Origin: a virus
Taxonomy: Duplodnaviria > Heunggongvirae > Uroviricota > Caudoviricetes
Virus record (IMG/VR): IMGVR_UViG_2706794662_000007
Reading direction: 5' to 3' (one strand)
Length of the DNA: 64,000 nucleotides
Positions 1 through 62,539 of this stretch are shown here, piece after piece. Positions within the stretch are counted from its first letter, which is position 1. The number at the start of each line of letters is the position of its first letter. The translations under genes were made by a program, and so were the position numbers. The notes beneath the pieces were generated by a model. The model did not search any database and had not been told where the DNA came from. It was given only the letters and a program-made list of their open reading frames with translations.

Positions 1-17
1 GCTGGCTTTGGTTGGGC

Positions 18-365
18 TTACGCGAATATCGCAAGGAAGTCCTGAACGTCCCAATGCTGGACGAGGTGAAGATAGACCTTAGAAATCACGTCATTTTCGC
101 TATCGCATGTGAAGTAGTACTTCTGGCTGCGGTTGTATGTGTCCACACAAAATTCGCTCATATCCATAAAGTCAGCATCTTCACCCATGTCGCAAATCAT
201 CAAAGCAGGTGCGTCATCACGAGTCATCAGCTCCAGCACCCATCTTGAATTAATCAGAGTGGAAGACCAACCTTCCAGCTCATAAAACTGGTCAAACTCT
301 TTTTGAGTCAATTTCTTAATTTGGTTGATGTCGATATTTGCAAACATAAAGCAATCCTTAAACAT
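18..365 (-). CDS. hypothetical acidic protein (start uncertain: ATG at 365 or 347)
   Basis: ORF track 18..413 begins at TTG; in-frame ATGs at 365 and 347, the latter with AAGGA 9 nt upstream; D/E-rich, no recognisable motif. Confidence 0.35.
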   Translation of the reverse strand: MFKDCFMFANIDINQIKKLTQKEFDQFYELEGWSSTLINSRWVLELMTRDDAPALMICDMGEDADFMDMSEFCVDTYNRSQKYYFTCDSENDVISKVYLHLVQHWDVQDFLAIFA

Positions 366-485
366 GTTGTTTTCTGAATTACGTAAACAATACCAGTAAG
401 AAAACGGCCACAAAGTATATCGTTACGGTGCTGCGCTGCCCCGAGGTTAATAGCGACAAAAGCCACCGTGCTGGTGGCCTCACTC

Positions 486-704
486 TTAATCTTGGTCGTC
501 CGGGAACTCGCTGTGTACCGCGCCCACCAGCTCCCGCTTTTCATCTTCACTCAGCAGGTGCCAGATATCCTTCCCTTTGGGCGATTCCCCTTCTGCCGGG
601 ACGAACGACCACAACTTGCGGTACAACTCCGGCCCCACTGCATCCAGACACTCAGCCAGGGAATCCACGCCCCACACCTCAACCGTCACAGGCATCTTAA
701 TCAT
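486..704 (-). CDS. hypothetical small protein
   Basis: 72-aa ORF, ATG start preceded by GAGGA. Confidence 0.35.
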   Translation of the reverse strand: MIKMPVTVEVWGVDSLAECLDAVGPELYRKLWSFVPAEGESPKGKDIWHLLSEDEKRELVGAVHSEFPDDQD

Positions 705-1019
705 CTCTTCATCCTCACTTCGTTTCTATAACGTCTAAATATGCTGTTTACTTGTTGGTGTTATTATCGCAATAAGATAAAGGCGAAAAAGGATTTTATG
801 TCGGGAAAGCCAGGCTGGGCAGTGAATATCCGGGAACGACACGAGAGCCAGTATTTACGATATTCTGCTCTACGCGCGCCGCGGGGCTGGTGGGTAGAAT
901 AATCCTCTCCCCGAAAACCTACTGAAATCGATTGTGACCCGCTGGCTGTCTGGCACAATTACGCTGTATCTGGCATTCAGAGGGAATCCAGCGGTAAGCA
1001 AGTCAGCCTGCACGTGAGC

Positions 1020-2270
1020 GCCTCTCTTCTTCCCGCACATTACAGGTGGGTAGCTGCAACTCTCTCTCTCTCGCTATACCGGTACGCCGCCGTTCCAGAA
1101 CCGGCATCGAGCCTTTTCCCGAAATCCACACAGGCAACTCGACCGTTTCCCTGAAAATCCCCAGCCGTTCCCCCGAAGGCAACCCAGCCGTTTCTGTAGC
1201 TGGATGCAACCTTTTCCCTGTATGGACCGAAGGCTGACCGTAGGGGGTGTTACGGGGGATAAAATCAGGAGTTGAATAAATACGAAAAAGGAGGCGACCC
1301 CCCTCCTTCCCTCTCCACTTATACATACCTGGCTTCTTCGCTATACATGTTGTGTTTTATCTGTCTCAACCTCTCTATAGGCGTTAATGCTCACTCCTTC
1401 CAGAATGTTCTATACGGCGACTATTTCTGTTGGTGAATTGGGTGTGTTGTTTTCTCTGTCGGTGTATGTGGTTTCGTTAGTTTTGCGGTGGTTCTTCTAT
1501 GGGGGTGTTCTCGTCGTTTTGGTGATTGTTCTTCTCCGTGTATGGAGTAATGGCAGGTGGGCGATTGCTTTCGTTATTGTGTTTGAGTTGTTTGTCTGGA
1601 GTGTGTGAAGGCTTTTGTAGTTATTCGTGTATTGGGTAATGGCGTTTCCCGTGATTGTTATGTTTCGTGTCTTTTGGGATTGAGAGAAACCTTGCGGTTA
1701 CAGGCTTCGTTAGGGTTTCAGCGGTTCAGGTGTTTCTTCGCTGTTTGGGTAATGGCGTGTCGTGGGTATCGCGCGTATGAATGTTTTCGGATTGCCTGTG
1801 AAAGTTAGGTTGGTTGTCCGGTAGCCTGGGGAGAAGAGGTGGGTCTTTTCGGTAGCCTGCCATAAAGAGGTTGGTTGTTTTGGGTAATGGCATATGTGTT
1901 ATTTGGTTGTTTTGTTATGCCTGAAAATAAGTTGTTTATATGGTTGTGTAACGCAACGGGAGCGATTTTGAGCGTGTGTTTTTGTTGGTAGTGTGTTGAG
2001 TCGTCTGTGGTGAAATTTGGACGCTGTGGCGCTATCTGCTGCGTAGAATTACGGGTATAAGAAGTGATGTGTGATAACGTCAATTTTTTAGACCAAATCG
2101 GGAGAAAGCGTTGATGTTTCGTTGATCTGTTATTTAGTTGTTTTCTTATTGGTATAAACAACCATAACCTATTGATATTTAATGATGTGATTGCTGGTAT
2201 GGGAGGGTAGTAGTGGCGATCAACGGGTTCTTATAGAAAAGAATCAAATTGTGACCGCCATTATCAACGG
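1020..2270. other. ORF-poor, strand-skewed non-coding region with direct repeats (candidate packaging site, origin or ncRNA locus)
   Basis: no convincing ORF; top strand almost A-free (G+T rich) across ~1380-2100; TGGGTAATGGC-like 11-mer at 1544, 1633, 1746, 1881; CCGTT(T)CC motif at 1088, 1142, 1164, 1186. Confidence 0.5.
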
Positions 2271-2275
2271 TTTGA

Positions 2276-2461
2276 TTAGATGAGATGGTCTAATTCATCA
2301 TCTATCATGGCTTTGACGCTGGAGTCGTTCACTCCATATTTATTTATGAGCTGTTTCAGCTCTGTCGAAAACTGAAGGTAGATATCGTGAGCGTTTTTCA
2401 CTGTAGGTTCAACGCCACTCATTTCAAGCGCCTTTAGTAGATATGAGTCTTCTTTAAGCAT
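2276..2461 (-). CDS. hypothetical small protein
   Basis: 61-aa ORF in phage-like context. Confidence 0.3.
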   Translation of the reverse strand: MLKEDSYLLKALEMSGVEPTVKNAHDIYLQFSTELKQLINKYGVNDSSVKAMIDDELDHLI

Positions 2462-2497
2462 AAATTCTCCGTTATCTAGTATGAAGCGATTGCCGGA

Positions 2498-2797
2498 TTA
2501 CCATTGCCAGCACTCAAGCCCTTCAACGACCGGTGCGCCACAATCAAAATGTACAGAGTTAAAGCCTACATCAAGTACTTTCTGAATGTTCGCAATCGCA
2601 CCCTCGGATATACCATATCGACGCAACTCATCTTTCCAGTCATCGTCCTGTAACCCGGCGTGGACAATGCAACCGTACTCAATTTGTGAAACCCAATCCA
2701 GCTCATTGCTTGCGATCATGAATCGGCGAGCATCTTCCTCTGATGTATGAGATGAACTGATCAATGCCACCTGGTAGGCTTGGGTAATGTTCAACAT
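2498..2797 (-). CDS. hypothetical protein
   Basis: 99-aa ORF, ATG at 2797, palindromic motif AAAACAAGTTGTTTT 13 nt upstream. Confidence 0.45.
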   Translation of the reverse strand: MLNITQAYQVALISSSHTSEEDARRFMIASNELDWVSQIEYGCIVHAGLQDDDWKDELRRYGISEGAIANIQKVLDVGFNSVHFDCGAPVVEGLECWQW

Positions 2798-2809
2798 TTC
2801 AACTACTCC

Positions 2810-2875
2810 AAAACAAGTTGTTTTCTTATGTGGCTTATTATCTCAATCAACAAAAGGTAGAAAACAAATTGTTTT
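2810..2875 (-). promoter_or_regulatory. two copies of palindromic motif AAAACAA-N1-TTGTTTT (2810-2824 and 2861-2875), candidate operator/promoter
   Basis: perfect 7-bp inverted arms; same motif recurs upstream of many minus-strand genes. Confidence 0.5.
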
Positions 2876-2909
2876 AGGGCTTGTGTAAATCAGGAGGGAT
2901 TGTGTCTAT

Positions 2910-2938
2910 ATGAAAATGCCCGGCGTGTTGCCGGGCAT
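2910..2938 (-). terminator. rho-independent terminator downstream of metG
   Basis: GC hairpin ATGCCCGGC/GCCGGGCAT followed by T-run in minus sense. Confidence 0.7.
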
Positions 2939-2958
2939 TGCGAAGAGAGGTTGTTTAA

Positions 2959-4897
2959 TTACTTAACCTGGTGGCCAGGTTTAGCACCAGCATCCGGGCT
3001 TAACAGGAAGATATCTTTCCCGCCAGGACCGGCAGCCATCACCATGCCTTCAGAGATACCGAAGCGCATTTTACGTGGTGCCAGGTTAGCCACCATAATG
3101 GTGTGACGACCAATCAGTGCCTGTGGATCTGGATAAGCGGAACGGATGCCTGAGAAGACATTACGCTTTTCACCACCGAGATCCAGCGTCAGGCGAAGCA
3201 GTTTGTCAGAACCTTCGACAAACTCCGCGTTTTCAATCAGCGCCACACGCAGGTCAACTTTGGCGAAGTCGTCAAAGGTGATGGTTTCCTGAATCGGTTC
3301 GTCAGCCAGTGGGCCAGTTACCGGTGCAGCTGTGGCTTTCACTTCTTCTTTGGATGCTTCCACCAGTGCTTCCACCTGTTTCATATCGATACGGTTATAC
3401 AGTGCCTTGAACGGATTCACTTTATGGCCCAGAAGCGGTTGCTGGATACCATCCCAGGTCAGTTCTGTATTCAGGAATGCTTCTGCACGTTCAGTCAGTT
3501 TCGGCAGTACCGGTTTCAGGTACGTCATCAGCACGCGGAACAGGTTAATGCCCATAGAGCAAATCGCCTGCAGATCTGCATCGCGACCTTCCTGCTTCGC
3601 CACCACCCACGGAGCCTGTTCATCGACATAGCGATTAGCCAGGTCAGCCAATGCCATGATTTCACGGATAGCTTTACCAAATTCGCGGCTTTCCCATGCT
3701 TCGCCAATCACTTCAGCGGCATCAGTAAAGGTTTTGTACAGTTGCGGGTCAGCCAGTTCGCTTGTCAGCACGCCGTCAAAACGCTTGTTGATAAAGCCTG
3801 CATTACGGGAGGCCAGGTTAACCACTTTGTTCACGATATCGGCATTCACGCGCTGAACGAAATCTTCCAGGTTGAGATCGATATCATCAATGCGCGAAGA
3901 GAGTTTCGCAGTGTAGTAGTAACGCAGGCTGTCAGCGTCAAAATGATTCAGCCAGGTGCTGGCTTTAATAAAGGTGCCGCGAGACTTGGACATCTTCGCG
4001 CCGTTCACCGTCACATAGCCGTGAACAAACAGGTTGGTCGGCTTGCGGAAGTTGCTGCCTTCCAGCATGGCAGGCCAGAACAGACTGTGGAAGTAAACGA
4101 TATCTTTGCCGATGAAGTGGTACAGCTCGGCGGTGGAGTCTTTCTTCCAGTATTCGTCGAAGCTTACGCTGTCGCCGCGCTTGTCGCACAGATTCTTGAA
4201 AGAACCCATGTAGCCAATCGGCGCGTCCAGCCAGACGTAGAAATATTTGCCCGGCGCGTTCGNNNNNNNNNNNNNNNNNNNNNNNNNNNNNNNNNNNNNN
4301 NNNNNNNNNNNNNNNNNNNNNNNNNNNNNNNNNNNNNNNNNNNNNNNNNNNNNNNNNNNNNNNNNNNNNNNNNNNNNNNNNNNNNNNNNNNNNNNNNNNN
4401 NNNNNNNNNNNNNNNNNNNNNNNNNNNNNNNNNNNNNNNNNNNNNNNNNNNNNNNNNNNNNNNNNNNNNNNNNNNNNNNNNNNNNNNNNNNNNNNNNNNN
4501 NNNNNNNNNNNNNNNNNNNNNNNNNNNNNNNNNNNNNNNNNNNNNNNNNNNNNNNNNNNNNNNNNNNNNNNNNNNNNNNNNNNNNNNNNNNCTCTTCGCT
4601 GTGCGTCGAGTGATAGTTGTCATAGCTGATGTTAAAGCCTGCGAAATCAGTCTGATGTTCCTGACTCATTTCGCCAATCATCTGTTCCGGTGTGATACCA
4701 AGCTGCTGTGCTTTCAGCATGATTGGCGTACCGTGGGCATCGTCGGCACAGATGAAATTAACCTCGTGGCCGCGCATTCGCTGGTAACGAACCCAGACAT
4801 CAGCCTGGATGTGCTCCAGCATATGGCCGAGGTGGATTGAGCCGTTAGCGTACGGCAGCGCGCACGTCACCAGAATTTTCTTCGCGACTTGGGTCAT
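2959..4897 (-). CDS. metG: methionyl-tRNA synthetase (interrupted by N-run 4263-4591)
   Basis: N-terminus [29 protein letters not shown] (HIGH motif) and C-terminus ...GAKPGHQVK match enterobacterial MetG as recalled; KMSKS present; ~140 residues hidden in the gap. Confidence 0.95.
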
Positions 4898-5054
4898 AGT
4901 AGGCATTACTTCTTTGTAGTGAAAAGGGGCTTGATAGTAACAAAATGGCCTTATGTCTGCCATGTGATAACAGCATTTCTCATAAATGATTAAATGTCGT
5001 AGCTGGAGTACACTACAAGGCGACAATTGCGCAAATTAAAATAAAGGAGACGGG

Positions 5055-6155
5055 ATGAGCGAGTCCAAATCGCCGGATGCCCTGAGAGCAATGGTAGCCG
5101 GTACGCTGGCTAATTTTCAGCACCCAACCCTGAAACACAACTTGACTACGCTTAAAGCGTTACACCATGTTGCGTTGATGGATGACACACTGCATGTCGA
5201 ACTAATCATGCCTTTCGTGTGGAATAAGCCTTTTGAAGACCTGAAAGAGCAATGTAGTGGTGATCTGCTCCGTATCACTGGCGCAAAGGCTATTGACTGG
5301 AAGCTGTCGTACAACATTGCCACGCTTAAGCGCGTCAAAAACCAACCAGGCATTAATGGCGTTAAGAACATTATCGCCGTCAGCTCAGGCAAGGGCGGCG
5401 TGGGTAAATCCTCCACAGCAGTAAACTTGGCACTGGCTTTGGCTGCTGAAGGTGCGAAAGTTGGTATTTTGGATGCCGATATCTATGGTCCATCAATTCC
5501 AACCATGCTGGGCGCGGAAAACCAACGTCCAACCTCACCGGACGGTACTCACATGGCACCTATCATGTCTCATGGCCTGGCAACCAACTCTATTGGTTAT
5601 CTGGTCACCGATGACAATGCAATGGTGTGGCGTGGACCGATGGCGAGCAAGGCGCTGATGCAGATGTTGCAGGAAACACTGTGGCCTGATCTGGACTATC
5701 TCGTTCTCGATATGCCACCGGGCACTGGTGATATTCAATTGACGCTGGCGCAGAACATTCCTGTAACTGGTGCGGTTGTGGTAACTACGCCGCAAGACAT
5801 CGCGCTGATCGATGCGAAGAAAGGCATTGTGATGTTCGAAAAAGTCGAAGTGCCGGTACTGGGTATCGTTGAAAACATGAGTGTGCATATTTGCAGTAAC
5901 TGCGGTCATCACGAGCCAATTTTTGGCACCGGTGGAGCACAGAAACTGGCCGAGAAATACAACACGCAGTTGTTAGGCCAAATGCCACTTCATATCTCTC
6001 TTCGTGAAGATCTGGATAACGGAACACCAACCGTTATTAGTCGTCCAGATAGCGAATTTACGGCTATTTATCGTGACCTCGCAGATCGCGTTGCTGCCCA
6101 AATGTATTGGCAAGGTGAAGTAATACCTGGCGAAATCGCATTCCGCGCAGTGTGA
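5055..6155 (+). CDS. apbC: Fe-S cluster carrier ATPase ApbC/Mrp
   Basis: 366 aa, P-loop GKGGVGKSS, CxxC near C-terminus, near-identical to E. coli Mrp as recalled; divergent from metG as on the chromosome. Confidence 0.95.
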   Translation: MSESKSPDALRAMVAGTLANFQHPTLKHNLTTLKALHHVALMDDTLHVELIMPFVWNKPFEDLKEQCSGDLLRITGAKAIDWKLSYNIATLKRVKNQPGINGVKNIIAVSSGKGGVGKSSTAVNLALALAAEGAKVGILDADIYGPSIPTMLGAENQRPTSPDGTHMAPIMSHGLATNSIGYLVTDDNAMVWRGPMASKALMQMLQETLWPDLDYLVLDMPPGTGDIQLTLAQNIPVTGAVVVTTPQDIALIDAKKGIVMFEKVEVPVLGIVENMSVHICSNCGHHEPIFGTGGAQKLAEKYNTQLLGQMPLHISLREDLDNGTPTVISRPDSEFTAIYRDLADRVAAQMYWQGEVIPGEIAFRAV

Positions 6156-6180
6156 TAAAAAGGCGGTGCATTGCACCGCC
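6156..6180 (-). terminator. terminator of the UmuD'-like gene, abutting the apbC stop codon
   Basis: hairpin GGCGGTGCA/TGCACCGCC followed by T-run in minus sense. Confidence 0.6.
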
Positions 6181-6192
6181 TAATCAGTTCTC

Positions 6193-6582
6193 CTACATCA
6201 CAGGACAATCATCAAACTCGCCACTTCTTGCGTCGTTGATAATGTGAGTGATCACACCAAACACGGCATTGCTGCCCGTGCATCCATCGTCATCCTTTGG
6301 CAATGCTTCCTTCTTACCGGTTCTTAAATCCTCCAGATGCTGACGTGGAGACTTCCGGTATCTTTTTACGCGATATTCCCCATCCAGAGCGCATACAAGC
6401 AGAGAACCATCAACCGGGGTAAGTGAGGAATCAACCACCAGCAATGCACCCTGTAATATTCCCTCACGATGATGACTATCAGCTGCTCTCATGAAGTAGG
6501 TCGCTGAAGGATGTCTAATTATCTGCTGATCAAGAGAAATACGGCTCTCAGCATAATCCGCCGCAGGAGAAGGGAAGCCCAT
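6193..6582 (-). CDS. UmuD'-like S24 peptidase-family protein (P1 HumD-like, natively lacking the UmuD N-terminal arm)
   Basis: starts MGFPSPAADYAESRISLDQQIIRHPSATYF, matching the UmuD region just after its RecA-mediated cleavage site; Ser and Lys positions retained; in-frame stop 4 codons upstream of ATG. Confidence 0.8.
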   Translation of the reverse strand: MGFPSPAADYAESRISLDQQIIRHPSATYFMRAADSHHREGILQGALLVVDSSLTPVDGSLLVCALDGEYRVKRYRKSPRQHLEDLRTGKKEALPKDDDGCTGSNAVFGVITHIINDARSGEFDDCPVM

Positions 6583-6767
6583 AGCGTTTTGCCCTCAATA
6601 CTGTTCATTTACACAGTATACATGAAAGAAGCTCACTCAGTGCAACTGATCGGTACATAGCACCAGACAAAGGAACGTTATTTTCTCGAACAAGAAAAGG
6701 TAGAAAACAAATTGTTTAAGGCCACAACTAGTGGCCTTAATGGAGAAGGGATGCTTATTGGCTATGG

Positions 6768-7286
6768 CTAAAAATCAAANNNNNNNNNNNNNNNNNNNNN
6801 NNNNNNNNNNNNNNNNNNNNNNNNNNNNNNNNNNNNNNNNNNNNNNNNNNNNNNNNNNNNNNNNNNNNNNNNNNNNNNNNNNNNNNNNNNNNNNNNNNNN
6901 NNNNNNNNNNNNNNNNNNNNNNNNNNNNNNNNNNNNNNNNNNNNNNNNNNNNNNNNNNNNNNNNNNNNNNNNNNNNNNNNNNNNNNNNNNNNNNNNNNNN
7001 NNNNNNNNNNNNNNNNNNNNNNNNNNNNNNNNTTTAAAGGAAGATAGGTTCCCCATAGTAGCTGTCTGCCGTGCGCTCGTGTGAAATACCGGGCCATCTT
7101 CGGATTGCTATGCTGCTTAGGAGCGCCTGGTCTGTATGTCTGATACCCGGCCAACATCCCATCAAACCTGTATAGAGGGAATGTAACAACTCCTTCGCTT
7201 TCATCGATCCACTGTCTATATGGATGCACATCATAGCGGTAGTTACGAGTTAGCAAATGAGCTTCCAGCTTTCCAAATTTAGTCAT
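6768..7286 (-). CDS. hypothetical protein, C-terminal part masked by N-run
   Basis: ATG at 7286 with GAGGGA SD; ORF runs into N-run 6780-7032, so the end is unreliable. Confidence 0.3.
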   Translation of the reverse strand: MTKFGKLEAHLLTRNYRYDVHPYRQWIDESEGVVTFPLYRFDGMLAGYQTYRPGAPKQHSNPKMARYFTRAHGRQLLWGTYLPLXXXXXXXXXXXXXXXXXXXXXXXXXXXXXXXXXXXXXXXXXXXXXXXXXXXXXXXXXXXXXXXXXXXXXXXXXXXXXXXXXXXXXFDF

Positions 7287-7299
7287 AACTTCGCATCCC

Positions 7300-8154
7300 T
7301 CATAACACTTCCCATTTATCACCATATTTCTCCATAGCTCTTAGCCAATAAACATGGCCACTAGGCATAGTGATGTGAGGCTCGCCAAACTCTTCTCCAT
7401 GTACATCAAAGATGTCCCCAACAGAAAATTGGGGGATTTCTGTTCCGTTTTCACCTATATGTGTAATTCGTATACGTTTCGGTTGGGATTGTCCACCTTT
7501 GAGCGAGTTGTTCACTGCTCTGGCAATTTTCTCCCGCAATTGCTGCGTTCCGTGATACGTAACCGCAATATCCCGCAACTCATTCACTAGTTCTCGAATT
7601 TGGTGATCTTTAAGCTCATTATTTGGGTGATTGGTAACAACTCTGGTTAATTCCCCATTGTCTTTTGCTCTTACGTATGCAGCTCTTGTGCATTCGCCCC
7701 ATGTATTACCGCCTACATTAACTTCGTAGATTAGGCTGGACTTATCTGTCAATTCGGAACAAATACGGGCCGTGGTCTGGCAACTAGAGCATTCGCAGTT
7801 ATCGCGGAAACCGTGGTCTACTGGCTTCGGTTTAACATCATCAACTTTTTCTACCCTATTGGAATTTAAATACTTCGAAGCCTTGCTATGCCAATCGCTG
7901 GTTTTAGGATCTTGTCCATCCATCAAACGCCAGGCTTCAGCTATTAACTCATAACTAGTGACTGTAGCTTCCTGCGCATCACCAATAAGTCGTGTAATCT
8001 CTCTTTCAAGCCGACCGCCTAACTCCGTTTTAGTGCAATGTTCTGACCAATCGCCAGTCTCAAGAAGCGCGAGAATGCTTAAAATATCGTCCAATAGAAC
8101 GGTAGTATTATCGACTTCCTTCTGAAACTCACCGGCTACTGATTTATGCATCAT
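7300..8154 (-). CDS. hypothetical protein
   Basis: 284-aa ORF, ATG start, Cys cluster CECSSC, no family recognised. Confidence 0.5.
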   Translation of the reverse strand: MMHKSVAGEFQKEVDNTTVLLDDILSILALLETGDWSEHCTKTELGGRLEREITRLIGDAQEATVTSYELIAEAWRLMDGQDPKTSDWHSKASKYLNSNRVEKVDDVKPKPVDHGFRDNCECSSCQTTARICSELTDKSSLIYEVNVGGNTWGECTRAAYVRAKDNGELTRVVTNHPNNELKDHQIRELVNELRDIAVTYHGTQQLREKIARAVNNSLKGGQSQPKRIRITHIGENGTEIPQFSVGDIFDVHGEEFGEPHITMPSGHVYWLRAMEKYGDKWEVL

Positions 8155-8432
8155 TCGTCATCCTCATCCGAGTCATCCTCATCACAGGATGAGAGTAGTG
8201 GGTTAGTCATTCGCCCTACTTGAGTGGCGTAGCAACGCCGACAGAGATTGCGCAGCACACTGTATATTTCGAACATCTCGGTTCGTTCATCGCCAACATC
8301 AAGCTCAGATGCTATAGCGTGGCATTCAGTCGCGAGAGCCGATATTTTCTGAAATAACTCTGCTTTATTCACTCTTCGACTCCTGCGGAGGTTCTGGTAG
8401 CGGCATCCAGTGAGTTGCTTGCTCAATACCAT
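8151..8432 (-). CDS. hypothetical protein
   Basis: 93-aa ORF, ATGA overlap with downstream gene. Confidence 0.4.
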   Translation of the reverse strand: MVLSKQLTGCRYQNLRRSRRVNKAELFQKISALATECHAIASELDVGDERTEMFEIYSVLRNLCRRCYATQVGRMTNPLLSSCDEDDSDEDDE

Positions 8433-8940
8433 TACCCGGCTTAATCGTTACATCTCCGCGCCGAAAGGTGATTCCGGTATAGCGTGCGGAGCATATTAGC
8501 GGTTCAACCAGAGAGCTATCGAAATTCACCGAAATAAGCACGTTCTGGCCCTTTTCAGGCATTCGCTCACTACAGCTTATCCAACCATCCGGAGTTACCG
8601 GATGGGGTCCAGCGAACTCGGGAATGTCAGGACCTTTTCTGATAGCTTTAGCCAGATCCAGCGGGTCATCGTAAAGCCAGTCGCCAGTTTGTGGGTGATT
8701 TGCTTCTGCAAGCTGCGCAGCCCATTCAAGACCATCTTTTTGACCTTGGAGATAATCAAGCGGCAACTCTTCATGATTACTTGCAGGTTCTGCACTATCA
8801 GCTTCGCGCCGCTTCTGTAGCTCTGCTGCCATCGCTCTCACGACTTCAACTGGTGCCCTTGCAGCAAACTCTATGTTGGTGATCAGCTCATTAAGATATT
8901 GCTCGCCTGGATACTGTTTCTTATCGGTTATAGTGGTCAT
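8365..8940 (-). CDS. DUF551-like phage protein
   Basis: start MTTITDKK with AGGAGAG SD; C-terminal ATHWMPLPEPP signature common in enterobacterial prophage proteins. Confidence 0.55.
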   Translation of the reverse strand: MTTITDKKQYPGEQYLNELITNIEFAARAPVEVVRAMAAELQKRREADSAEPASNHEELPLDYLQGQKDGLEWAAQLAEANHPQTGDWLYDDPLDLAKAIRKGPDIPEFAGPHPVTPDGWISCSERMPEKGQNVLISVNFDSSLVEPLICSARYTGITFRRGDVTIKPGNGIEQATHWMPLPEPPQESKSE

Positions 8941-8941
8941 A

Positions 8942-9328
8942 TCACTCTCCTTTTCCCTGAAGCATAGCAGCGCGGCAGGCATTCCAGCCTCTCACCTCTG
9001 CAATAGCGGCAACAGCATCAACCGCGTACATGCTAAGAGGATTAGGCATTGGTTTTTCTTCCGGTACTACTGGAACGGGTGGAGCGGCGTAGACCTCAAT
9101 AATTCCATTATCAATAGGCCATTCTCCATCCTTGAGGTAGTCACTTGTGCCGTCAACTTGCTGTTCTGCAATGTGGAATGCACCTATTGGTTTTGCTTCC
9201 AGCGATGCCAGAGCAATTCGTGCCAGTTCTTCCGCTTCTTCTGCTGGCAGTACAACGTTGCTACCAGGTCCGTATGTTTCGCGCCACTGTTTGATTGTCA
9301 GTAGTCGCTCTTTGGTAATAGTGGTCAT
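8942..9328 (-). CDS. hypothetical phage protein
   Basis: 128 aa, MTTITKERL start with AAGGAG SD. Confidence 0.5.
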   Translation of the reverse strand: MTTITKERLLTIKQWRETYGPGSNVVLPAEEAEELARIALASLEAKPIGAFHIAEQQVDGTSDYLKDGEWPIDNGIIEVYAAPPVPVVPEEKPMPNPLSMYAVDAVAAIAEVRGWNACRAAMLQGKGE

Positions 9329-9338
9329 GTGTTACTCC

Positions 9339-9611
9339 TTAACCCGCAGTGCNNNNNNNNNNNNNNNNNNNNNNNNNNNNNNNNNNNNNNNNNNNNNNNN
9401 NNNNNNNNNNNNNNNNNNNNNNNNNNNNNNNNNNNNNNNNNNNNNNNNNNNNNNNNNNNNNNNNNNNNNNNNNNNNNNNNNNNNNNNNNNNNNNNNNNNN
9501 NNNNNNNNNNNNNNNNNNNNNNNNNNNNNNNNNNNNNNNNNNNNNNNNNNNNNNNNNNNNNNNNNNNNNNNNNNNNNNNNNNNNNNNNNNNNNNNNNNNN
9601 NNAGTTGCCAT
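9339..9611 (-). CDS. hypothetical protein almost fully masked by N-run
   Basis: ATG at 9611 (MAT...) behind conserved junction GGAGAGTGATATG; body is N. Confidence 0.25.
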   Translation of the reverse strand: MATXXXXXXXXXXXXXXXXXXXXXXXXXXXXXXXXXXXXXXXXXXXXXXXXXXXXXXXXXXXXXXXXXXXXXXXXXXXXXXXXXXXXTAG

Positions 9612-9612
9612 A

Positions 9613-10134
9613 TCACTCTCCTTTGATGCGAATGCCTGCTGCAATGCTGTTTATGATGCTGTCAGTGCATGGAGTAGAAAGCTGGGCATCTCCAGCAATT
9701 TTCATGACCTCAACATCCGCATATCGAATACCGAGGTGTATCAGACCGGCTATACCTGACTTAAGTCGAACATTTTCCATAAACAGATCTTTTTCCCGCT
9801 GTTTAGCGGCTTCCAACTCCATCGACAATTTTTCCAACTGCTCTTTATGCTTCTTGTATTCCTGATACGCGTGCCAAGACTGACCTTTGCGCACACTATC
9901 AGTGATATCAGCAACCTGCTCCGGTGTTAGCGTGGTCAGTGGCTGTGCTGGAAAAATCATCACTTTCCCGGCATCCCAATCAAAACCCGCCTGAATTGAC
10001 TGAACCTCAACTGATGGTGTTGAACCGATGCGACCAGGCGAATGAACAACGATCGTTACATCCATATCGCGACGATGGCTGTGGTTGTTGGACAAAATAC
10101 GATTCACCAACTCAGAAAATTTGGAAAATTTCAT
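9613..10134 (-). CDS. hypothetical phage protein
   Basis: [10 protein letters not shown] start; C-terminus AAGIRIKGE shared with gene 10456..10986 because of a repeated junction sequence. Confidence 0.5.
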
Positions 10135-31135: not shown

Positions 31136-33058
31136 AGCTGCGCCCCTCTTTAACTTCCAGCGTAATAGTTTCCCGGAACCATGACTTCATCTCTTTATGG
31201 GAGATAATCAGCACAGTACCTCGCTCGCGAGCTTTGGACTCCAGAATACCCATGAGGCGTTCAAGACCGGCTGTATCGAGTGCATCGTCAATTTCGTCGC
31301 CGATAAACAAATCGATGTTTTTACTCGCCCGGTTACTAACCAGATCCTGCAATGCCAAAGAACACGCAATGCGAACCTTCCGCTTCTCACCACCAGAGAG
31401 GGTCTGGAACGACTTACTTGAACCTTTCTTCTGCACACTAATGTTGAATTTGTCGCGATACTCACCTTTTTTGGTGACATCCATCGTCGACCACTCAGCA
31501 GTAATATTCCCGTCAGACAACGTATTGAGATACTCGGCAGTGCGTGTATTCAGGAAAGGCGTAACAGACGTCAAAATATGAGAACGCACCCCGGCAGGAG
31601 AGTAGACCTGACGAGCTTTTTCCAATAGCAACGTTTGTTCCTGAATAGCCTTCAACTCATCTTTTAAGGACTTGAAGGTAGACTTACTGGATACCAGGTT
31701 ATCTTCGTGTCTGGCGATAAGAGCAATAAACGGATTAATCTCTTTTGATATACGATCGACCTCAGTACGAGCACGAGTCACAAGAGACTCAATAGCAACA
31801 ATCTCCTTCTCACGATGACGCAAAGATGAGAGTTGTTTCGTAAGCTCTTCAATCCGGGCAATGATAGCCGTTACATCAGGTGTCGTTTTAACAAGGGCAG
31901 ACTCAATGCTTAACGCTTTCTCAAGATTCGTTTTGTGTTTAGCCATTGCCTCTGCAAGTGTCTTCGCCTGACCAATTTCCTGACGTGCTTGTTCAATGAA
32001 ATTCTCCTTCACCGTTGATAGATCTTCTTCGCAGTAGGCTTTGCCACAAGTAGGGCATGGTGATCCCACTTTAGTACCAACCTCTTCTGCTTTGGTCTTA
32101 AAATTACGCGCGCGGTTCATTGCATCAGCCTGACTATTTTCTGTAGCTTTGATGCTTGCCCGAATATCAGTTATCGCACCACGAACNNNNNNNNNNNNNN
32201 NNNNNNNNNNNNNNNNNNNNNNNNNNNNNNNNNNNNNNNNNNNNNNNNNNNNNNNNNNNNNNNNNNNNNNNNNNNNNNNNNNNNNNNNNNNNNNNNNNNN
32301 NNNNNNNNNNNNNNNNNNNNNNNNNNNNNNNNNNNNNNNNNNNNNNNNNNNNNNNNNNNNNNNNNNNNNNNNNNNNNNNNNNNNNNNNNNNNNNNNNNNN
32401 NNNNNNNNNNNNNNNNNNNNNNNNNNNNNNNNNNNNNNNNNNNNNNNNNGATTGTCGACTCCAATTTGGTTTTAACCACATCCATACGTGCGGCAGCTGC
32501 ATTAGCTCGCTCACGAGCAATAGCGTAGGCGCGTGTCAGTCTGTCAACGCCAGCGGCTTCTTCTACGATGGTTTTGAGGTTTTTGTCGGACATTCCAGGT
32601 AAATCTGGCATAGCTTCTTGGCTCGCATAGATGGAAGCCATGAAAACCTCTTTAGATGCACCGATCAGACGCTCGACGAACTCTTGCGTCAGCGCATCTT
32701 TGCCTTTCGTCATATCGCCGTCTTCACCACGAACGATAAGCCGATTTTTGAACTCTTTGTGTTTACGGTGACGAATGATCGCATATCTCTTGCCTTCATC
32801 CTCGATGGTTACTGCAACACGACAGTTCTTTTCATGGTCGGTAGACAACACATCGTCACCCTTCACACCATGAGCTGTTTCGCCATAAAGACACCACATC
32901 AGGCTATTCATTAGCGTTGACTTTCCAGAGCCATTACTTGATGCGGAACTATCATCACTATTAACACCCTGAATGAGCACTAAACCACGCTGATCTAACT
33001 CGACCTCCGCGCTGGCGATAGCCATAAAATTCTCAACCTGGAGCTTTAAAAACTTCAT
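31125..33058 (-). CDS. sbcC: SbcC/Rad50-like ATPase (interrupted by N-run 32187-32449)
   Basis: N-terminal Walker A GSGKST; C-terminal signature LSGGE and Walker B DEIDDALD; coiled-coil middle. Confidence 0.75.
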
Positions 33059-42093: not shown

Positions 42094-43184
42094 TTACTCT
42101 TCTACTGACTCGGTGGGGTTGTCTTTTGCTCTTCGGTCGTCGATTGCCTGCAAAGCCGCAATGATTTCAGCCAGTGGCTTCTCCCGATACATCTCGACGA
42201 TCTGCGATTTGGTGTATTTCTTGTCACCAATTTCAACTCGCCCGCTGGCGTTCTTTGGCAGGTATCCTTCTTCCAGCATGTACTCGACGAGCGATTCGAT
42301 AACGTCGAGGCCACGAGTAGGATCGAAGTAGAATTTCCAGGTGCATTTGCCATACGGTGGTGCAACTTTGTTTTTGATGCATTCTGCGCCTACGTCCTGG
42401 CCGATCTTCTCTTTACCATCCTTCATCACCGATGCACCAAGACGGATACGTACAGAAGCGTAGAACTTCGGTGAATCTCCACCTGGAGACGTAGTAGGGT
42501 CGCCAAACATTACACCGATTTTTGTGCGAACCTGATTCAAGAAGATGATGCAGGCGTTGTATTTGCGTGCCCACAAAGCCAGAGTAGGGAAGTTCGCACT
42601 TGTCGCACGAGCCAGTGCCGTATTGTCGTTCATGTTTAGCTGATCTTTGTCTTTGGCAGTGCCTTCAGCCATCTTTTCGAACTTCTCGGCTTTGGAGTTC
42701 GGAACCATAGACGCAAGTGAGTCAGCCACGATACAGATAGGTGCTGATTCAGGAATAAGCTCTTCATCACGTACCAATTTAAGAATTGTGCCGATCAACT
42801 CTACAGAGTCTTCGAAGGTATCAGGCTGCTTGTATACCCACTGACCGTCATCCTCATCTGCATTCAAACCATTGGCTACAGCCAGGCCAACGTCAAAACT
42901 GTTCTCATGATCGAGGANNNNNNNNNNNNNNNNNNNNNNNNNNNNNNNNNNNNNNNNNNNNNNNNNNNNNNNNNNNNNNNNNNNNNNNNNNNNNNNNNNN
43001 NNNNNNNNNNNNNNNNNNNNNNNNNNNNNNNNNNNNNNNNNNNNNNNNNNNNNNNNNNNNNNNNNNNNNNNNNNNNNNNNNNNNNNNNNNNNNNNNNNNN
43101 NNNNNNNNNNNNNNNNNNNNNNNNNNNNNNNNNNNNNNNNNNNNNNNNNNNNNNNNNNNNNNNNNNNNNNNNNNNTTTTGCCAT
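42094..43184 (-). CDS. RecA-like recombinase (interrupted by N-run 42918-43175)
   Basis: IIFLNQVRTKIGVMFGDPTTSPGG...FYASVRIRL matches the RecA core; ATG at 43184 with AAGGAG SD. Confidence 0.75.
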
Positions 43185-57688: not shown

Positions 57689-57775
57689 TGGCGGAGAGTA
57701 ATGGAATCGAACCATCATCGCTTGCGCAATGGGACGGTTTTCAAGACCGCTTGAGCACCATGCTCCCTACTCTCC
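57689..57775 (-). tRNA. tRNA-Ser (anticodon UGA), type II with long variable arm
   Basis: 7-bp acceptor stem GGAGAGT/ACTCTCC, anticodon loop CTTGAAA, T-loop TTCGATT, encoded CCA; short D-loop. Confidence 0.65.
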
Positions 57776-57939
57776 AGTCGTTGTGGTTACCGGTACTGAT
57801 CTCCGGCTTAGCGACCCCGGCTACTGACTGCATTGCAGTGTGTGAACTCGCCTCGTGTGTCGCTGGGGCATTTCTTTCCGCGCATCAGTCTGCGCATCAA
57901 CCACAACGGAAAGAGCATTCACGTCTCGCGTGCCACCAC

Positions 57940-58035
57940 GAATGGCAACTCAGAGAGTCGAACTCTGAAAATGTTCTTACCTGTTGTGCGCTCCGTTTCG
58001 TGGAGCTAACGGCGGGTGAACAGGCCGCACCAGGT
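57940..58035 (-). pseudogene. tRNA-like remnant (T-arm intact, no pairing acceptor stem)
   Basis: perfect T-arm CAGAG-TTCGACT-CTCTG but no complementary acceptor stem found. Confidence 0.3.
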
Positions 58036-58265
58036 TGGACATATTTCAGCGTTATGCTGTTGCAAGAGAGCCAAATTGTGATGGTCGGCGCTGATCTCCG
58101 ACACAGGGTTGTAGCAAGCCCCGCAAAGCGCGCACTACTGTAGTTGCGGCACATCAGCCTGTGCATTCACCACAATGTTGAGAACACTGGTTGTCACGCG
58201 GCAACGCAACATTTATTCATAGATTGGGATATGACCCCGTTACGCCAATGTTCTCAATATTATGT

Positions 58266-58341
58266 TGGTGCCGATTAACGGGATCGAACCGATGACCATT
58301 CGCTTACAAAGCGACTGCTCTACCAACTGAGCTAAATCGGC
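58266..58341 (-). tRNA. tRNA-Thr (anticodon UGU)
   Basis: acceptor GCCGATT/AATCGGC, D-arm TAGCTCAGTTGGTAGAGCA, anticodon loop TTTGTAA, T-loop TTCGATC, encoded CCA. Confidence 0.8.
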
Positions 58342-58345
58342 AATT

Positions 58346-58432
58346 TGGTGGGGAGTGATAGAGTCGAACCACCCGAGTCGCAATGACAGTAGATTTACAG
58401 TCTACCCCGCTACCTCTACGGACTAACTCCCC
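58346..58432 (-). tRNA. tRNA-Tyr (anticodon GUA), type II
   Basis: acceptor GGGGAGT/ACTCCCC, anticodon arm GTAGA-CTGTAAA-TCTAC, long variable arm, encoded CCA. Confidence 0.8.
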
Positions 58433-58437
58433 TAAAT

Positions 58438-58512
58438 TGGCGATGGTGGGTGGATTCGAACCACCGACCAATTGGTTAACAGCCAACTGCTCTACCGCTG
58501 AGCTACACCATC
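58438..58512 (-). tRNA. tRNA-Asn (anticodon GUU)
   Basis: perfect 7-bp acceptor GATGGTG/CACCATC, anticodon loop CTGTTAA, T-arm GGTGG-TTCGAAT-CCACC, encoded CCA; differs from E. coli tRNA-Asn as recalled. Confidence 0.85.
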
Positions 58513-61242: not shown

Positions 61243-62539
61243 TGTTGTTTTACCTCCATATGTTGATCGATTTGCTCATGTGTTTCTTTTGTTGTTTCTT
61301 CAAGCAACGCCGCATACACGTCAGTGATCGCTGTTTGTGATGTGGTGCTCTTCTTAACCATGCTATTAATCGTTACACTGTCACGTTTTCGTTTTAAAGT
61401 TCTGGCTTGTTTATTCCGTTCTTCAACCTCCTTAATGAGCGCGGTCATATCTTCGAAATACAGAGATTCTCCTTTACGAATCTCTTCAACCATCATTTTT
61501 AACGCCTTGCATTTGCCTGCTTTGATAGCGGTTGCGCACGACTGGAATGAAGTTCGAGGAAGACGGTTTTCTTTGAAGGCAAGAATGGTGTGCTGGCAAA
61601 CGGAGTAGCTGCAATATGCCGACTCACCGTTTATNNNNNNNNNNNNNNNNNNNNNNNNNNNNNNNNNNNNNNNNNNNNNNNNNNNNNNNNNNNNNNNNNN
61701 NNNNNNNNNNNNNNNNNNNNNNNNNNNNNNNNNNNNNNNNNNNNNNNNNNNNNNNNNNNNNNNNNNNNNNNNNNNNNNNNNNNNNNNNNNNNNNNNNNNN
61801 NNNNNNNNNNNNNNNNNNNNNNNNNNNNNNNNNNNNNNNNNNNNNNNNNNNNNNNNNNNNNNNNNNNNNNNNNNNNNNNNNNNNTAGCAATCCTGACCAC
61901 CTTCCAAGCAAATTCCGCCATTACGCCATCACATGCCTTCCCAGCATCAATAACGATATGCACCAGATCCAACTGGCTTTTGCACATGTCGCAAAGAGAC
62001 GCATACTCACTCTCTCTGATTACATTTACGGCATCATTAGCCCCTTTATTAAGCAAGACTTCCAACAGATTTTTCGGGGTAACGAAATCTGCTTTCAGAG
62101 ATAATGTCTTTTCACCACTTATCGAACGCAAGTACTCTTCGTAGTTATTCTTCATCAAACCGCTGCTGCGCATTGCTAGAACTGCTTCTTGAATGGCCGC
62201 TTCAATAGTTTCGTCGTTTGAAAGACAAAAAACGGTATTTGTGTAGATCACTCTGCCATCAAGCCATGCTCCAACCTGCACTTTAAGACTGAGCGGGTTT
62301 TCTTTGCTAATAAAAACAACTAATGCAGAACGTCGTGCACAAGAAGGTTCACCCCATACGTGTAACTTAACCTTCAGATAAGGTAGCCCCGGTAGCGGGA
62401 TCTCGACCAAACGAGTGGCGATATGATCCATTGCTGTTTTTACCGCTTTTTCAATGATGTCTAGTCGATTGCTCTCGCTGATTTCTAAACCAGTTTTATC
62501 AATGATGTCGCAGGCTAATTTCTGAATTTCGTCTTTCAT
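61239..62539 (-). CDS. hypothetical replication-associated protein (interrupted by N-run 61635-61884)
   Basis: two ORF pieces either side of the gap, between primase and ligase; frame continuity cannot be verified. Confidence 0.35.

Follow-up and report, generated by a model that had tools for sequence, protein, structure and literature searches.

A probably host-derived metG–apbC cassette in SSU5/pHCM2-type phage-plasmids of Escherichia and Shigella

The metG–apbC gene pair

The stretch of DNA analyzed here (hereafter, the window) comprises 64,000 nucleotides (nt) of the IMG/VR virus record IMGVR_UViG_2706794662_000007, from a virus of the Caudoviricetes. In this window, two genes known from enterobacterial chromosomes, metG and apbC (also called mrp), lie divergently on either side of a control region, and together form the cassette that is the subject of this study. 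The coordinates assigned to both genes in an earlier, model-generated annotation of this DNA (the original prediction) all held when the sequence was re-checked:

2959..4897, minus strand: metG, methionine–tRNA ligase (MetRS), 677 amino acids (aa); NCBIfam NF001100 equivalog, with 99.0% aa and 95.1% nt identity to Escherichia coli K-12
4898..5054, no strand: divergent metG–apbC intergenic control region, 157 bp compared with 131 bp in K-12
5055..6155, plus strand: apbC/mrp, iron-sulfur (Fe-S) cluster carrier P-loop ATPase, 366 aa; NCBIfam NF008669, with 94.8% aa and 81.5% nt identity to K-12

The stop and start codons of metG occupy positions 2959-2961 and 4895-4897 of the minus strand, respectively, and the apbC stop codon occupies 6153-6155. 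A blastn comparison with K-12 gave one single alignment of 3,298 bp, running from the metG stop codon to 4 nt inside the end of mrp with nothing beyond, so that the chromosomal divergent arrangement is kept, as had been predicted, whereas the chromosomal neighbors yehE and yehF are not found beside the block. The two proteins had been described as matching those of E. coli almost residue for residue. This is true for MetG, in which 670 of the 677 residues are identical to K-12, and only roughly so for ApbC, in which 347 of 366 residues are identical and residues 87-295 are without change. The GC content of the block is 50.7%, as compared to 45.4% in the remaining window, and the block is thus a compositional island distinct from the rest.

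MetG scored 1018 bits against NF001100 (cut-off 587), 696 against TIGR00398 (336), and 163.7 against TIGR00399, the model of the C-terminal tRNA-binding domain (116.65); for this scoring, the sequence of a record (L002) identical to the window outside a masked run was used. The catalytic motifs of MetG, HLGH of the HIGH type (...GSIHLGHML...) and KMSKS (...GAKMSKSRG...), are intact, and so are the four zinc-knuckle cysteines (CPKC...CEVC, in ...CPKCKSPDQYGDNCEVC...), which lie in a stretch that is masked in the window and was taken from an identical record. ApbC scored 759.3 bits against NF008669 (cut-off 348) and retains the deviant Walker A motif (GKGGVGKS) and the C-terminal CxxC cluster-binding motif (CSNCGH), whereas the MinD models remained far under their cut-offs (57 against 213, and 26 against 508). 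These results indicate that both predicted proteins are full-length and are MetG and ApbC equivalogs.

The cassette is annotated in RefSeq and in the record of the phage Cyrano (= pLF82), a sister element. The Cyrano homologue of apbC, CYRAN_99, is annotated there as a septum site-determining (MinD-like) protein, and neither metG nor the origin of the pair is discussed (PMC9928086). This label is a misnomer, since the protein is an ApbC equivalog and is sub-threshold for the MinD models. As a separate observation, residue 134 of MetG, read from the records L002 and L086 since it lies in a masked run, is Cys, whereas Gly is found at this position in K-12, in the five other plasmid alleles examined, and in 31 MetG sequences from enterobacteria; the substitution is private to this allele.

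Seven runs of N, 250-329 nt in length, mask parts of the window (4263-4591, 6780-7032, 9353-9602, 13174-13428, 32187-32449, 42918-43175, and 61635-61884). Because the run lengths differ from those of the real sequence, such as 253 N for 246 bases at 6780-7032, open reading frames (ORFs) that span the runs are artificially frame-shifted. In the same way, metG appears broken in the ORF list because the run at 4263-4591 replaces 424 bases by 329.

The surrounding element

The first 12 kb of the window match p09EL50, one of the ~109-kb E. coli plasmids, at 98.5%. The unmasked parts of positions 1-9716 show zero mismatches to plasmid 2 of Shigella sonnei AUSMDU00008333 (LR213459.1), a ~108-kb plasmid, and the region 2400-6700 is 100% identical both to this plasmid and to the record ‘Escherichia phage CMS-2020a’ (CP054387.1). 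In addition, the left flank of the cassette is 73.5% identical to Salmonella phage SSU5, and the gene order, from ParB, helicase, and repressor through DUF1380 to the DUF4942 methylase, is that of SSU5/pHCM2. The 100% match to a plasmid, taken together with the homology and synteny with SSU5, shows that the window is part of an SSU5/pHCM2-type phage-plasmid.

The sister element Cyrano/pLF82 is present at 5.5 copies per cell and is induced by genotoxic stress; its encapsidated genomes were found at 32-fold above contamination, and siphovirus particles were seen by electron microscopy (PMC9928086). Plasmid maintenance and virion formation are thus known from this sister element.

The boundaries of the cassette

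Both boundaries of the cassette fall within tens of bases of the stop codons, among the following features:

2498..2797, minus strand: backbone gene of the DUF5983/DUF1380 family, 99 aa, left neighbor of the cassette; an ORF, with Pfam DUF5983 found in related loci, homologous to the SSU5 region ending at SSU5_104
2835..2880, minus strand: promoter/operator-like module copy 1, with a palindrome at 2861-2875; repeat family D1, kept in SSU5, pHCM2-like, and E. fergusonii plasmids
2912..2938, minus strand: metG intrinsic terminator, GCCCGGC-AACAC-GCCGGGC followed by TTTT; found by eye and unlisted in a simple consensus scan
6161..6181, minus strand: GC-rich hairpin between the convergent apbC and humD; scores as a minus-strand (humD) terminator
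6193..6582, minus strand: humD, UmuD'-like S24 peptidase; NCBIfam HumD, 218.7 bits (cut-off 120)

On the left, the alignment to SSU5-type relatives runs to ...TTTTAGGG and then diverges at about position 2880, the homology to SSU5 itself stopping at 2879. The ~80 bp between this junction and metG include the metG terminator, for which a comparison with its E. coli counterpart and with 81 chromosomal loci revealed no homology. A scan of the 2498-2797 gene against NCBIfam gave no match. The 15-bp palindrome AAAACAAATTGTTTT at 2861-2875 lies 36 bp from the terminator hairpin, in agreement with the predicted distance of about 35 bp.

On the right, the stop codons of apbC and humD are separated by 37 bp containing one hairpin, and the prediction that the apbC stop codon is followed by the terminator of a UmuD'-like gene was confirmed. 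The stem of this hairpin occurs in two variants, GGCGGTGC/GCACCGCC and GGTGGTGC/GCACCACC, that differ by a compensatory C-G to T-A change, and the hairpin was found neither in phage P1 nor in the chromosomal loci tested.

The possibility had also been raised that the flanks are ordinary chromosomal DNA next to metG. This is not the case, as the homology to chromosomes ends at the two stop codons in every chromosome tested, none of which shares the 3' flanks. A repeat search revealed no attachment-site remnants or direct repeats flanking the block other than the promoter modules.

Distribution of the cassette

A search of PLSDB with the region 2400-6700 retrieved 173 plasmids at a coverage of at least 80%, and 208 at an identity of at least 90%. 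The 5,426 complete E. coli genomes searched contained 223 plasmid places at 95-99% identity and 5,430 chromosomal places, all at ~89-91%, with no overlap between the chromosomal and the plasmid copies. Since every one of the 5,426 genomes has a chromosomal match, the carriers (~4% of the genomes) hold a second copy. Thus, in these E. coli, as well as in Shigella and E. albertii isolates, genes for a second tRNA ligase and a second Fe-S carrier reside on an infectious element. The cassette is also present in the phage records Cyrano and PhiR41_1, the left flank occurs at an identity of at least 90% in ~197 PLSDB records, almost all from Escherichia or Shigella, and 12,090 indexed blocks of public assemblies contain the exact ApbC protein. 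Essentially the whole Escherichia/Shigella clade of SSU5/pHCM2-type phage-plasmids carries the cassette.

These numbers bear on the earlier suggestion of an assembly chimera, in which chromosomal metG–apbC reads were mis-joined into a phage-plasmid contig. Short-read assemblies do fail at this locus: several contigs of ~100-109 kb end inside metG (L107, L108, and L110), and one IMG/VR scaffold (L135 with L140) joins phage-plasmid genes to a chromosomal metG over a gap of 10 nt. However, hundreds of plasmids that were closed independently of one another, as well as phage records, have identical junctions, and the plasmid alleles, at 95-99% against 89-91% for the chromosomal ones, are distinct from every E. 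coli chromosomal allele. Furthermore, apbC cannot consist of mis-assembled host reads, because it is 18.5% diverged from the chromosomal gene. A chimera is therefore refuted for the element as a whole, its probability being practically negligible. The ~2-kb metG repeat, 95% identical overall and locally identical, nevertheless breaks or mis-joins short-read assemblies and can contaminate metG allele calls, which is of concern for typing as well as for assembly.

It is likewise extremely improbable that the window represents an ordinary chromosomal metG locus with a prophage integrated alongside. Plasmid-type apbC does lie beside yehH/yehI in a few long contigs (L095, L098, and L103), and the cassette is found inside chromosome-sized records (L096, L100, and L101). 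However, the unmasked parts of the window match a 108-kb plasmid record at 100% identity, yehE and yehF do not flank the pair, the homology to chromosomes ends at the stop codons, and a junction of chromosome, metG, plasmid-type apbC, and humD was found in none of the 5,426 complete E. coli genomes. The related proposal of an insertion into a prophage fails on the same grounds, the element being a ~108-kb plasmid in which yehE/yehF are absent. Of the explanations put forward in the original prediction, the capture of host DNA by a phage-plasmid is the one that was supported.

The three chromosome-sized records, of 2.7-5.6 Mb, are VCZV01000001.1 (L096), CP043541.1 (L100), and CASDMQ010000024.1 (L101); in the last of these, lambda-like tail genes replace most of metG directly upstream of apbC. 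The set of E. coli genomes searched does not include CP043541.1.

Apparent captures of metG-mrp by other phages did not withstand inspection. The records of ‘Acinetobacter phage MD-2021a’ are chromosomal contigs with emrB, dcyD, pfs, and dcd as neighbors, and those of ‘Salmonella phage S.Kent’ (S.Kent 1-2-1) are fragments of 2.5-5 kb with a chromosomal metG–apbC. ‘Pseudomonas phage Y5’ is an unannotated record flagged as UNVERIFIED. Several ‘phage’ metG-mrp records are thus really chromosomal, which, like the MinD-like label of the Cyrano apbC, matters for annotation.

Origin of apbC, metG, and the intergenic region

The two genes differ markedly in their distance from K-12. The nucleotide identity is 95.1% for metG, with 0.23 synonymous substitutions per synonymous site (dS), and 81.5% for apbC (dS ~1.7). 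The distance between the plasmid metG and that of K-12 is comparable to the distance between K-12 and Escherichia sp. E1V33, and metG falls inside Escherichia in the trees of both gene halves. Plasmid apbC is 81.6% identical to Citrobacter werkmanii and thus no nearer to E. coli, whereas K-12 and Citrobacter share 84%. In the ApbC protein tree, the plasmid clade forms a long branch beside Citrobacter and Salmonella, outside Escherichia. Among the ApbC differences from K-12, 13 of 20 states occur in other genera, one of them in Citrobacter alone. The GC content at third codon positions of plasmid apbC is 0.51-0.53, as compared to 0.60-0.66 in the chromosomes compared, whereas that of plasmid metG (0.61) is close to the value in K-12 (0.625).

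The intergenic region is similarly divided. The ~47-50 nt beside metG share 89-100% identity with loci of Escherichia and Citrobacter, and the apbC-proximal half contains a ~25-nt segment in common with Citrobacter werkmanii that is not in E. coli, E1V33, or Salmonella. The E. coli source implied by the original prediction was therefore borne out in part: metG is of the Escherichia type and recombines with the host, whereas apbC and its intergenic half are as far from E. coli as from Citrobacter/Salmonella.

The identity of metG to K-12 is patchy, and the patches differ among elements. In the window allele, nt 427-770 form a 344-nt run identical to K-12, a length reached in 0 of 5,000 permutations, whereas Cyrano and PhiR41_1 are only 91-93% identical there. 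Other alleles have K-12-like patches elsewhere, at 301-500 in p09EL50 and at 1351-1500 and 1651-1900 in PhiR41_1, and the 3' third of metG shows 85-92% identity in most alleles. This mosaic with E. coli-identical patches indicates that the metG of the elements has undergone repeated gene conversion with the host copy.

In addition, the cassette does not appear to be a recent copy of E. coli DNA, because no E. coli chromosome exceeds ~91% identity to it. The pair would rather stem from a single, old capture event, the source being an enterobacterial chromosome that is either non-Escherichia or early-branching. After the capture, apbC would have evolved on the element, drifting toward its lower GC content, and the more conserved metG would have been overwritten in patches by conversion from the chromosomal metG of successive hosts. 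Two linked captured genes would thus have met with opposite fates, with apbC drifting to the composition of the element and metG staying host-like via conversion.

A recent neutral passenger, that is, an E. coli fragment that entered by illegitimate recombination or aberrant excision and has not yet been lost, would account for the 99% identity of MetG to the E. coli protein and for the location of the cassette in a hypervariable cargo region with fast turnover. Such a passenger is, however, quite unlikely: no E. coli chromosome is closer than ~91%, apbC is of a non-Escherichia type that is ameliorated toward the GC content of the element, the cassette is clade-wide though its right-hand neighbors vary, and the segregating sites of both genes lie overwhelmingly in codons without amino-acid change, as described below.

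Selection, expression, and proposed role

Pairwise comparisons of apbC between elements gave 0 nonsynonymous against 14-29 synonymous differences, and those of metG gave ratios of nonsynonymous to synonymous rates (omega) of 0.05-0.08. Among 39 plasmid-type apbC sequences, 91 of the 103 segregating sites lie in codons without amino-acid change, as do 230 of the 254 segregating sites among 20 metG sequences. As judged from these substitution patterns, both genes have been under strong purifying selection while on the element.

The RNA sequencing (RNA-seq) study of LF82 lists CYRAN_99, the apbC homologue, as a moron expressed 9-fold above the prophage background (PMC9928086). The counts in LB medium for Cyrano were 148 for humD, 92 for apbC, 16 for metG, and ~7-10 for the structural genes (PMC9928086, supplementary table). 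These data show that at least apbC is expressed in lysogeny in the sister element.

The placement of the cassette is that of a moron, as it lies between phage transcription units, bounded by the module at 2835-2880 and by the humD terminator and outside the operator-bearing promoters of the element, and brings its own metG terminator and its own divergent intergenic region. It also seems dispensable in the manner of a moron, since the relatives SSU5, pHCM2-like, and E. fergusonii plasmids carry other genes at the same slot. The conserved ~50 nt next to metG suggest that the host promoter may have been retained, and the intergenic region holds no copy of the palindrome found on both sides of the cassette.

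Taken together, these observations make it likely that metG and apbC constitute a host-derived two-gene moron, or auxiliary cassette, fixed in the Escherichia/Shigella clade of SSU5/pHCM2-type phage-plasmids. Such a cassette would supply the lysogen with extra doses of MetRS and ApbC, independently of the repressor and at the copy number of the element (~5.5 in pLF82), and the dosage would increase further in lytic replication. If the extra MetRS and ApbC alter the physiology of the lysogen, for example, in translation, stress or antibiotic tolerance, or Fe-S maturation, phage-plasmids would thereby bring about a lysogenic conversion of a new type. Neither the metG–apbC cassette nor its origin is discussed in the phage-plasmid literature that was searched.

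Several points weigh against this interpretation. The search for a donor of apbC gave none among the matches listed, in which the genus Escherichia is represented by E1V33 and an E. coli-like sequence (L007), and the donor comparison left out the chromosomes of E. albertii, E. fergusonii, and E. marmotae. An Escherichia-derived apbC that evolved fast keeps some residual probability, since amelioration inflates distance. Expression of metG was only ~1.6-fold above background (16 against ~10) in one lysogen transcriptome, in which reads are shared with the 94-95% identical chromosomal copy, and no promoter in the intergenic region passed a simple sigma-70 scan. The benefit of the cassette is suggested by selection alone. 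Finally, part of the window's own metG is masked, and the full-length gene was taken from two records (L086 and L002) identical to the window outside the masked run.

The E. coli-like sequence L007 is labeled ‘Enterobacter hormaechei B56’; its metG–apbC scores the same as that of K-12, and the record is probably mislabeled.

A counter-measure would be a more specific role, in which the extra MetRS and ApbC act against a toxin directed at Met-tRNAfMet, a MetRS inhibitor, or the host shut-off in lytic growth. The element has four tRNA genes, and Cyrano has a gene for a GNAT toxin resembling AtaT (E = 1e-79 to the AtaT structures 6GTS and 6AJM); AtaT acetylates Met-tRNAfMet. The toxin gene, however, was found neither in the window nor in the 13 kb of LR213459.1 that are syntenic with its locus, and thus has no linkage to the cassette. 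Moreover, with 99% identity to the host enzyme, the plasmid MetRS cannot be an inhibitor-insensitive variant. These results render such a counter-measure highly improbable.

In Cyrano, the genes for the AtaT-like toxin and its antitoxin (CYRAN_26/27, L147 14191-15025) adjoin the lysis genes and ParA; they are absent from LR213459.1 27000-40000.

Exchange between the element and the chromosome at metG

The ~2 kb of 95%-identical metG could itself be what is selected, as a homology arm for Campbell-type integration, for mobilization of the high-frequency-recombination (Hfr) type or transduction of neighboring genes, and for the shuttling of metG alleles between strains. The gene conversion between plasmid and chromosomal metG, which happened several times, is in line with this idea, and so are three independent draft or metagenome contigs in which a hybrid metG joins yehH/yehI to plasmid-type apbC-humD. 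In these contigs (L095, L098, and L103), metG lies at 5810-7843 with a crossover near nt 1100-1200, on one side of which are yehH/yehI, the E. coli terminator, and the chromosomal 3' part, and on the other the plasmid-type 5' part, apbC, and humD. They represent either homologous integration at metG or assembly artefacts.

On the other side, the junction is seen in 0 of the 5,426 closed E. coli genomes, and the hybrid contigs could have arisen from assembly at a repeat, as short-read assemblies break or are mis-scaffolded at metG. A look-up of the left-flank protein returned plasmid-sized contigs only and no integrated form. In addition, a homology arm has no need for an intact, purified reading frame, and apbC is too diverged for efficient recombination, yet its purifying selection is at least as strong. 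Selection of metG as a homology arm is therefore unlikely. The broader notion of metG as a portable homology arm, allowing RecA-dependent reversible integration and shuttling alleles, and possibly neighboring DNA, among E. coli, Shigella, and E. albertii, is unlikely as well; if true, alleles of a housekeeping locus with a link to antibiotic tolerance would be exchanged by way of an infectious element.

Comparison with known systems

Morons have been defined in the study cited above (PMC9928086), which also catalogues those of the LF82 prophages, Cyrano/pLF82 among them. Prophage morons, like the present cassette, lie between phage transcription units with their own control region and terminator. 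They are typically virulence, defense, or surface genes without a chromosomal twin, whereas the cassette duplicates an essential housekeeping gene together with its chromosomal neighbor.

Giant viruses and huge phages encode aminoacyl-tRNA synthetases (aaRS), and the cassette joins the short list of virus-encoded aaRS genes. In both cases, a core translation enzyme is found in a virus with tRNA genes alongside. The virus-encoded aaRS are usually deeply diverged and reside in very large lytic genomes. In contrast, the MetG of the cassette is 99% host-like and resides in a temperate phage-plasmid, its neighbor and intergenic region are kept, and exchange with the host is ongoing. Viral ribosomal proteins provide another case of translation-related auxiliary genes (PMC6375957).

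A second aaRS copy on a mobile element beside the chromosomal one is also a feature that the cassette shares with the MupA/MupB type. Plasmid-borne second aaRS of this type (the MupA/MupB isoleucyl-tRNA ligases) give inhibitor resistance, and a second MetRS is present in Streptococcus pneumoniae. These resistance alleles are strongly diverged, whereas the MetG of the cassette differs from that of K-12 at 7 of 677 residues, none of them in the catalytic motifs. The MupA and MupB profiles gave only remote, sub-threshold matches to MetG. An inhibitor-resistant auxiliary aaRS was accordingly ruled out by the 7/677 differences, and any effect would be via dosage.

Finally, F-prime formation and specialized transduction likewise place a contiguous chromosomal segment with native gene order on a packaged episome. 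The cassette differs in being trimmed to tens of bases from both stop codons, ancient, and clade-wide. The cassette does not bear the signature of capture by aberrant excision, as the integrase CYRAN_44 lies tens of kb away and the neighbors of the cassette are the DUF1380-family gene and humD. Overall, the cassette is real and ordinary in kind, a familiar phage cargo, with the opposite fates of its two genes and the ongoing conversion with an essential host gene as its twists.

The cargo slot and its modules

The following features surround the cassette at greater distance or occupy the same slot in relatives:

2810..2824, no strand: operator-like 15-bp palindrome AAAACAAGTTGTTTT; the start codon of the 2498-2797 gene follows 13 nt downstream
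6599..6618, no strand: consensus LexA box TACTGTTCATTTACACAGTA upstream of humD; seen in the sequence, inside a P1-homologous stretch with an annotated LexA site upstream of humD
6678..6741, minus strand: promoter/operator-like module copy 2, with a terminator-like hairpin at 6716-6740
11814..11877, minus strand: promoter/operator-like module copy 3, from repeat comparison, alignment, and core pattern
SSU5 (L005) 13932-14135, E. fergusonii pRHB38-C07_2 (L090) 13051-13254, and pHCM2-like S. Typhi plasmid (L091) 12587-12790, opposite to the surrounding leftward operons: ydfZ, putative selenium delivery protein, host-like

The cargo slot is hypervariable, with the backbone gene of the DUF1380 family on one side and the gene for the DUF4942 methyltransferase on the other. 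SSU5, the pHCM2-like plasmid, and E. fergusonii pRHB38-C07_2 have SSU5_103-ydfZ-LprI in this slot, without the cassette. Like the cassette, the ydfZ cargo directly adjoins the DUF1380 gene and its promoter module on the right and is host-like and on the opposite strand, whereas its gene content is unrelated to metG–apbC. The slot is therefore a general cargo site and not specific to metG. The right side of the cassette varies: L096 lacks humD and has an IS1 end within the apbC/humD hairpin, and in E. albertii p3RM15116 apbC is followed by other genes.

The humD gene is a cargo module separate from the cassette. Positions 6194-6629, which make up the humD region, are 85-87% identical at the nucleotide level to humD of phage P1, and the region has therefore been exchanged between two unrelated phage-plasmid families. 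In the RNA-seq data of Cyrano, humD rises from a log2 value of 7.4 in LB to 12.3 in macrophages (PMC9928086).

The motif family that had been predicted to lie on both sides of the host genes proved to be a 64-nt repeat module with a conserved core of ~45 nt, at 2835-2898, 6678-6741, and 11814-11877; a pattern search with a 23-nt core recovers all three copies. Upstream of the DUF1380-family gene, the module is conserved in SSU5, the pHCM2-like plasmid, and the E. fergusonii plasmid (alignment A1). Within it lies the palindrome AAAACAANTTGTTTT, with 5 occurrences in the window against 0.02 expected by chance; the sites are placed at 2810-2824, 2861-2875, 6704-6718, 11840-11853, 16402-16416, and 17131-17145. 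A distance of 51 bp separates the copies at 2810 and 2861, and the leftward ORFs that start at 16384 and 17107 are preceded, at 18-24 nt, by the copies at 16402-16416 and 17131-17145. The palindrome is probably the operator of an element-encoded regulator, and the motif family that flanks the host genes looks like a promoter/operator of the element.

Other features of the element

Upstream of the cassette, the region ~800-2240 comprises ~1.4 kb without an annotated coding sequence in p09EL50, and its strands are strongly asymmetric, with a GC skew of +0.17 and an AT skew of -0.34 over 1001-2000. It contains four 28-nt direct repeats (...TTGGGTAATGGC...) at 1532, 1621, 1734, and 1869, and is conserved at ~74% in SSU5-like plasmids of Klebsiella, Enterobacter, and Cronobacter. 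An Rfam scan of positions 1-12000 gave no matches. The region could be a non-coding RNA, an origin, or an array of binding sites.

A few kb right of the cassette, the contigs L095 and L102 (11843-14236) carry a beta-lactamase gene and a DDE transposase gene, resembling ISEcp1/blaCTX-M as in pECOH89. Four tRNA genes, Ser-tga, Thr-tgt, Tyr-gta, and Asn-gtt, lie on the minus strand at 57689-58512 of the window; three are annotated in Cyrano (Asn, Thr, and Ser), and two are reported for pECOH89.

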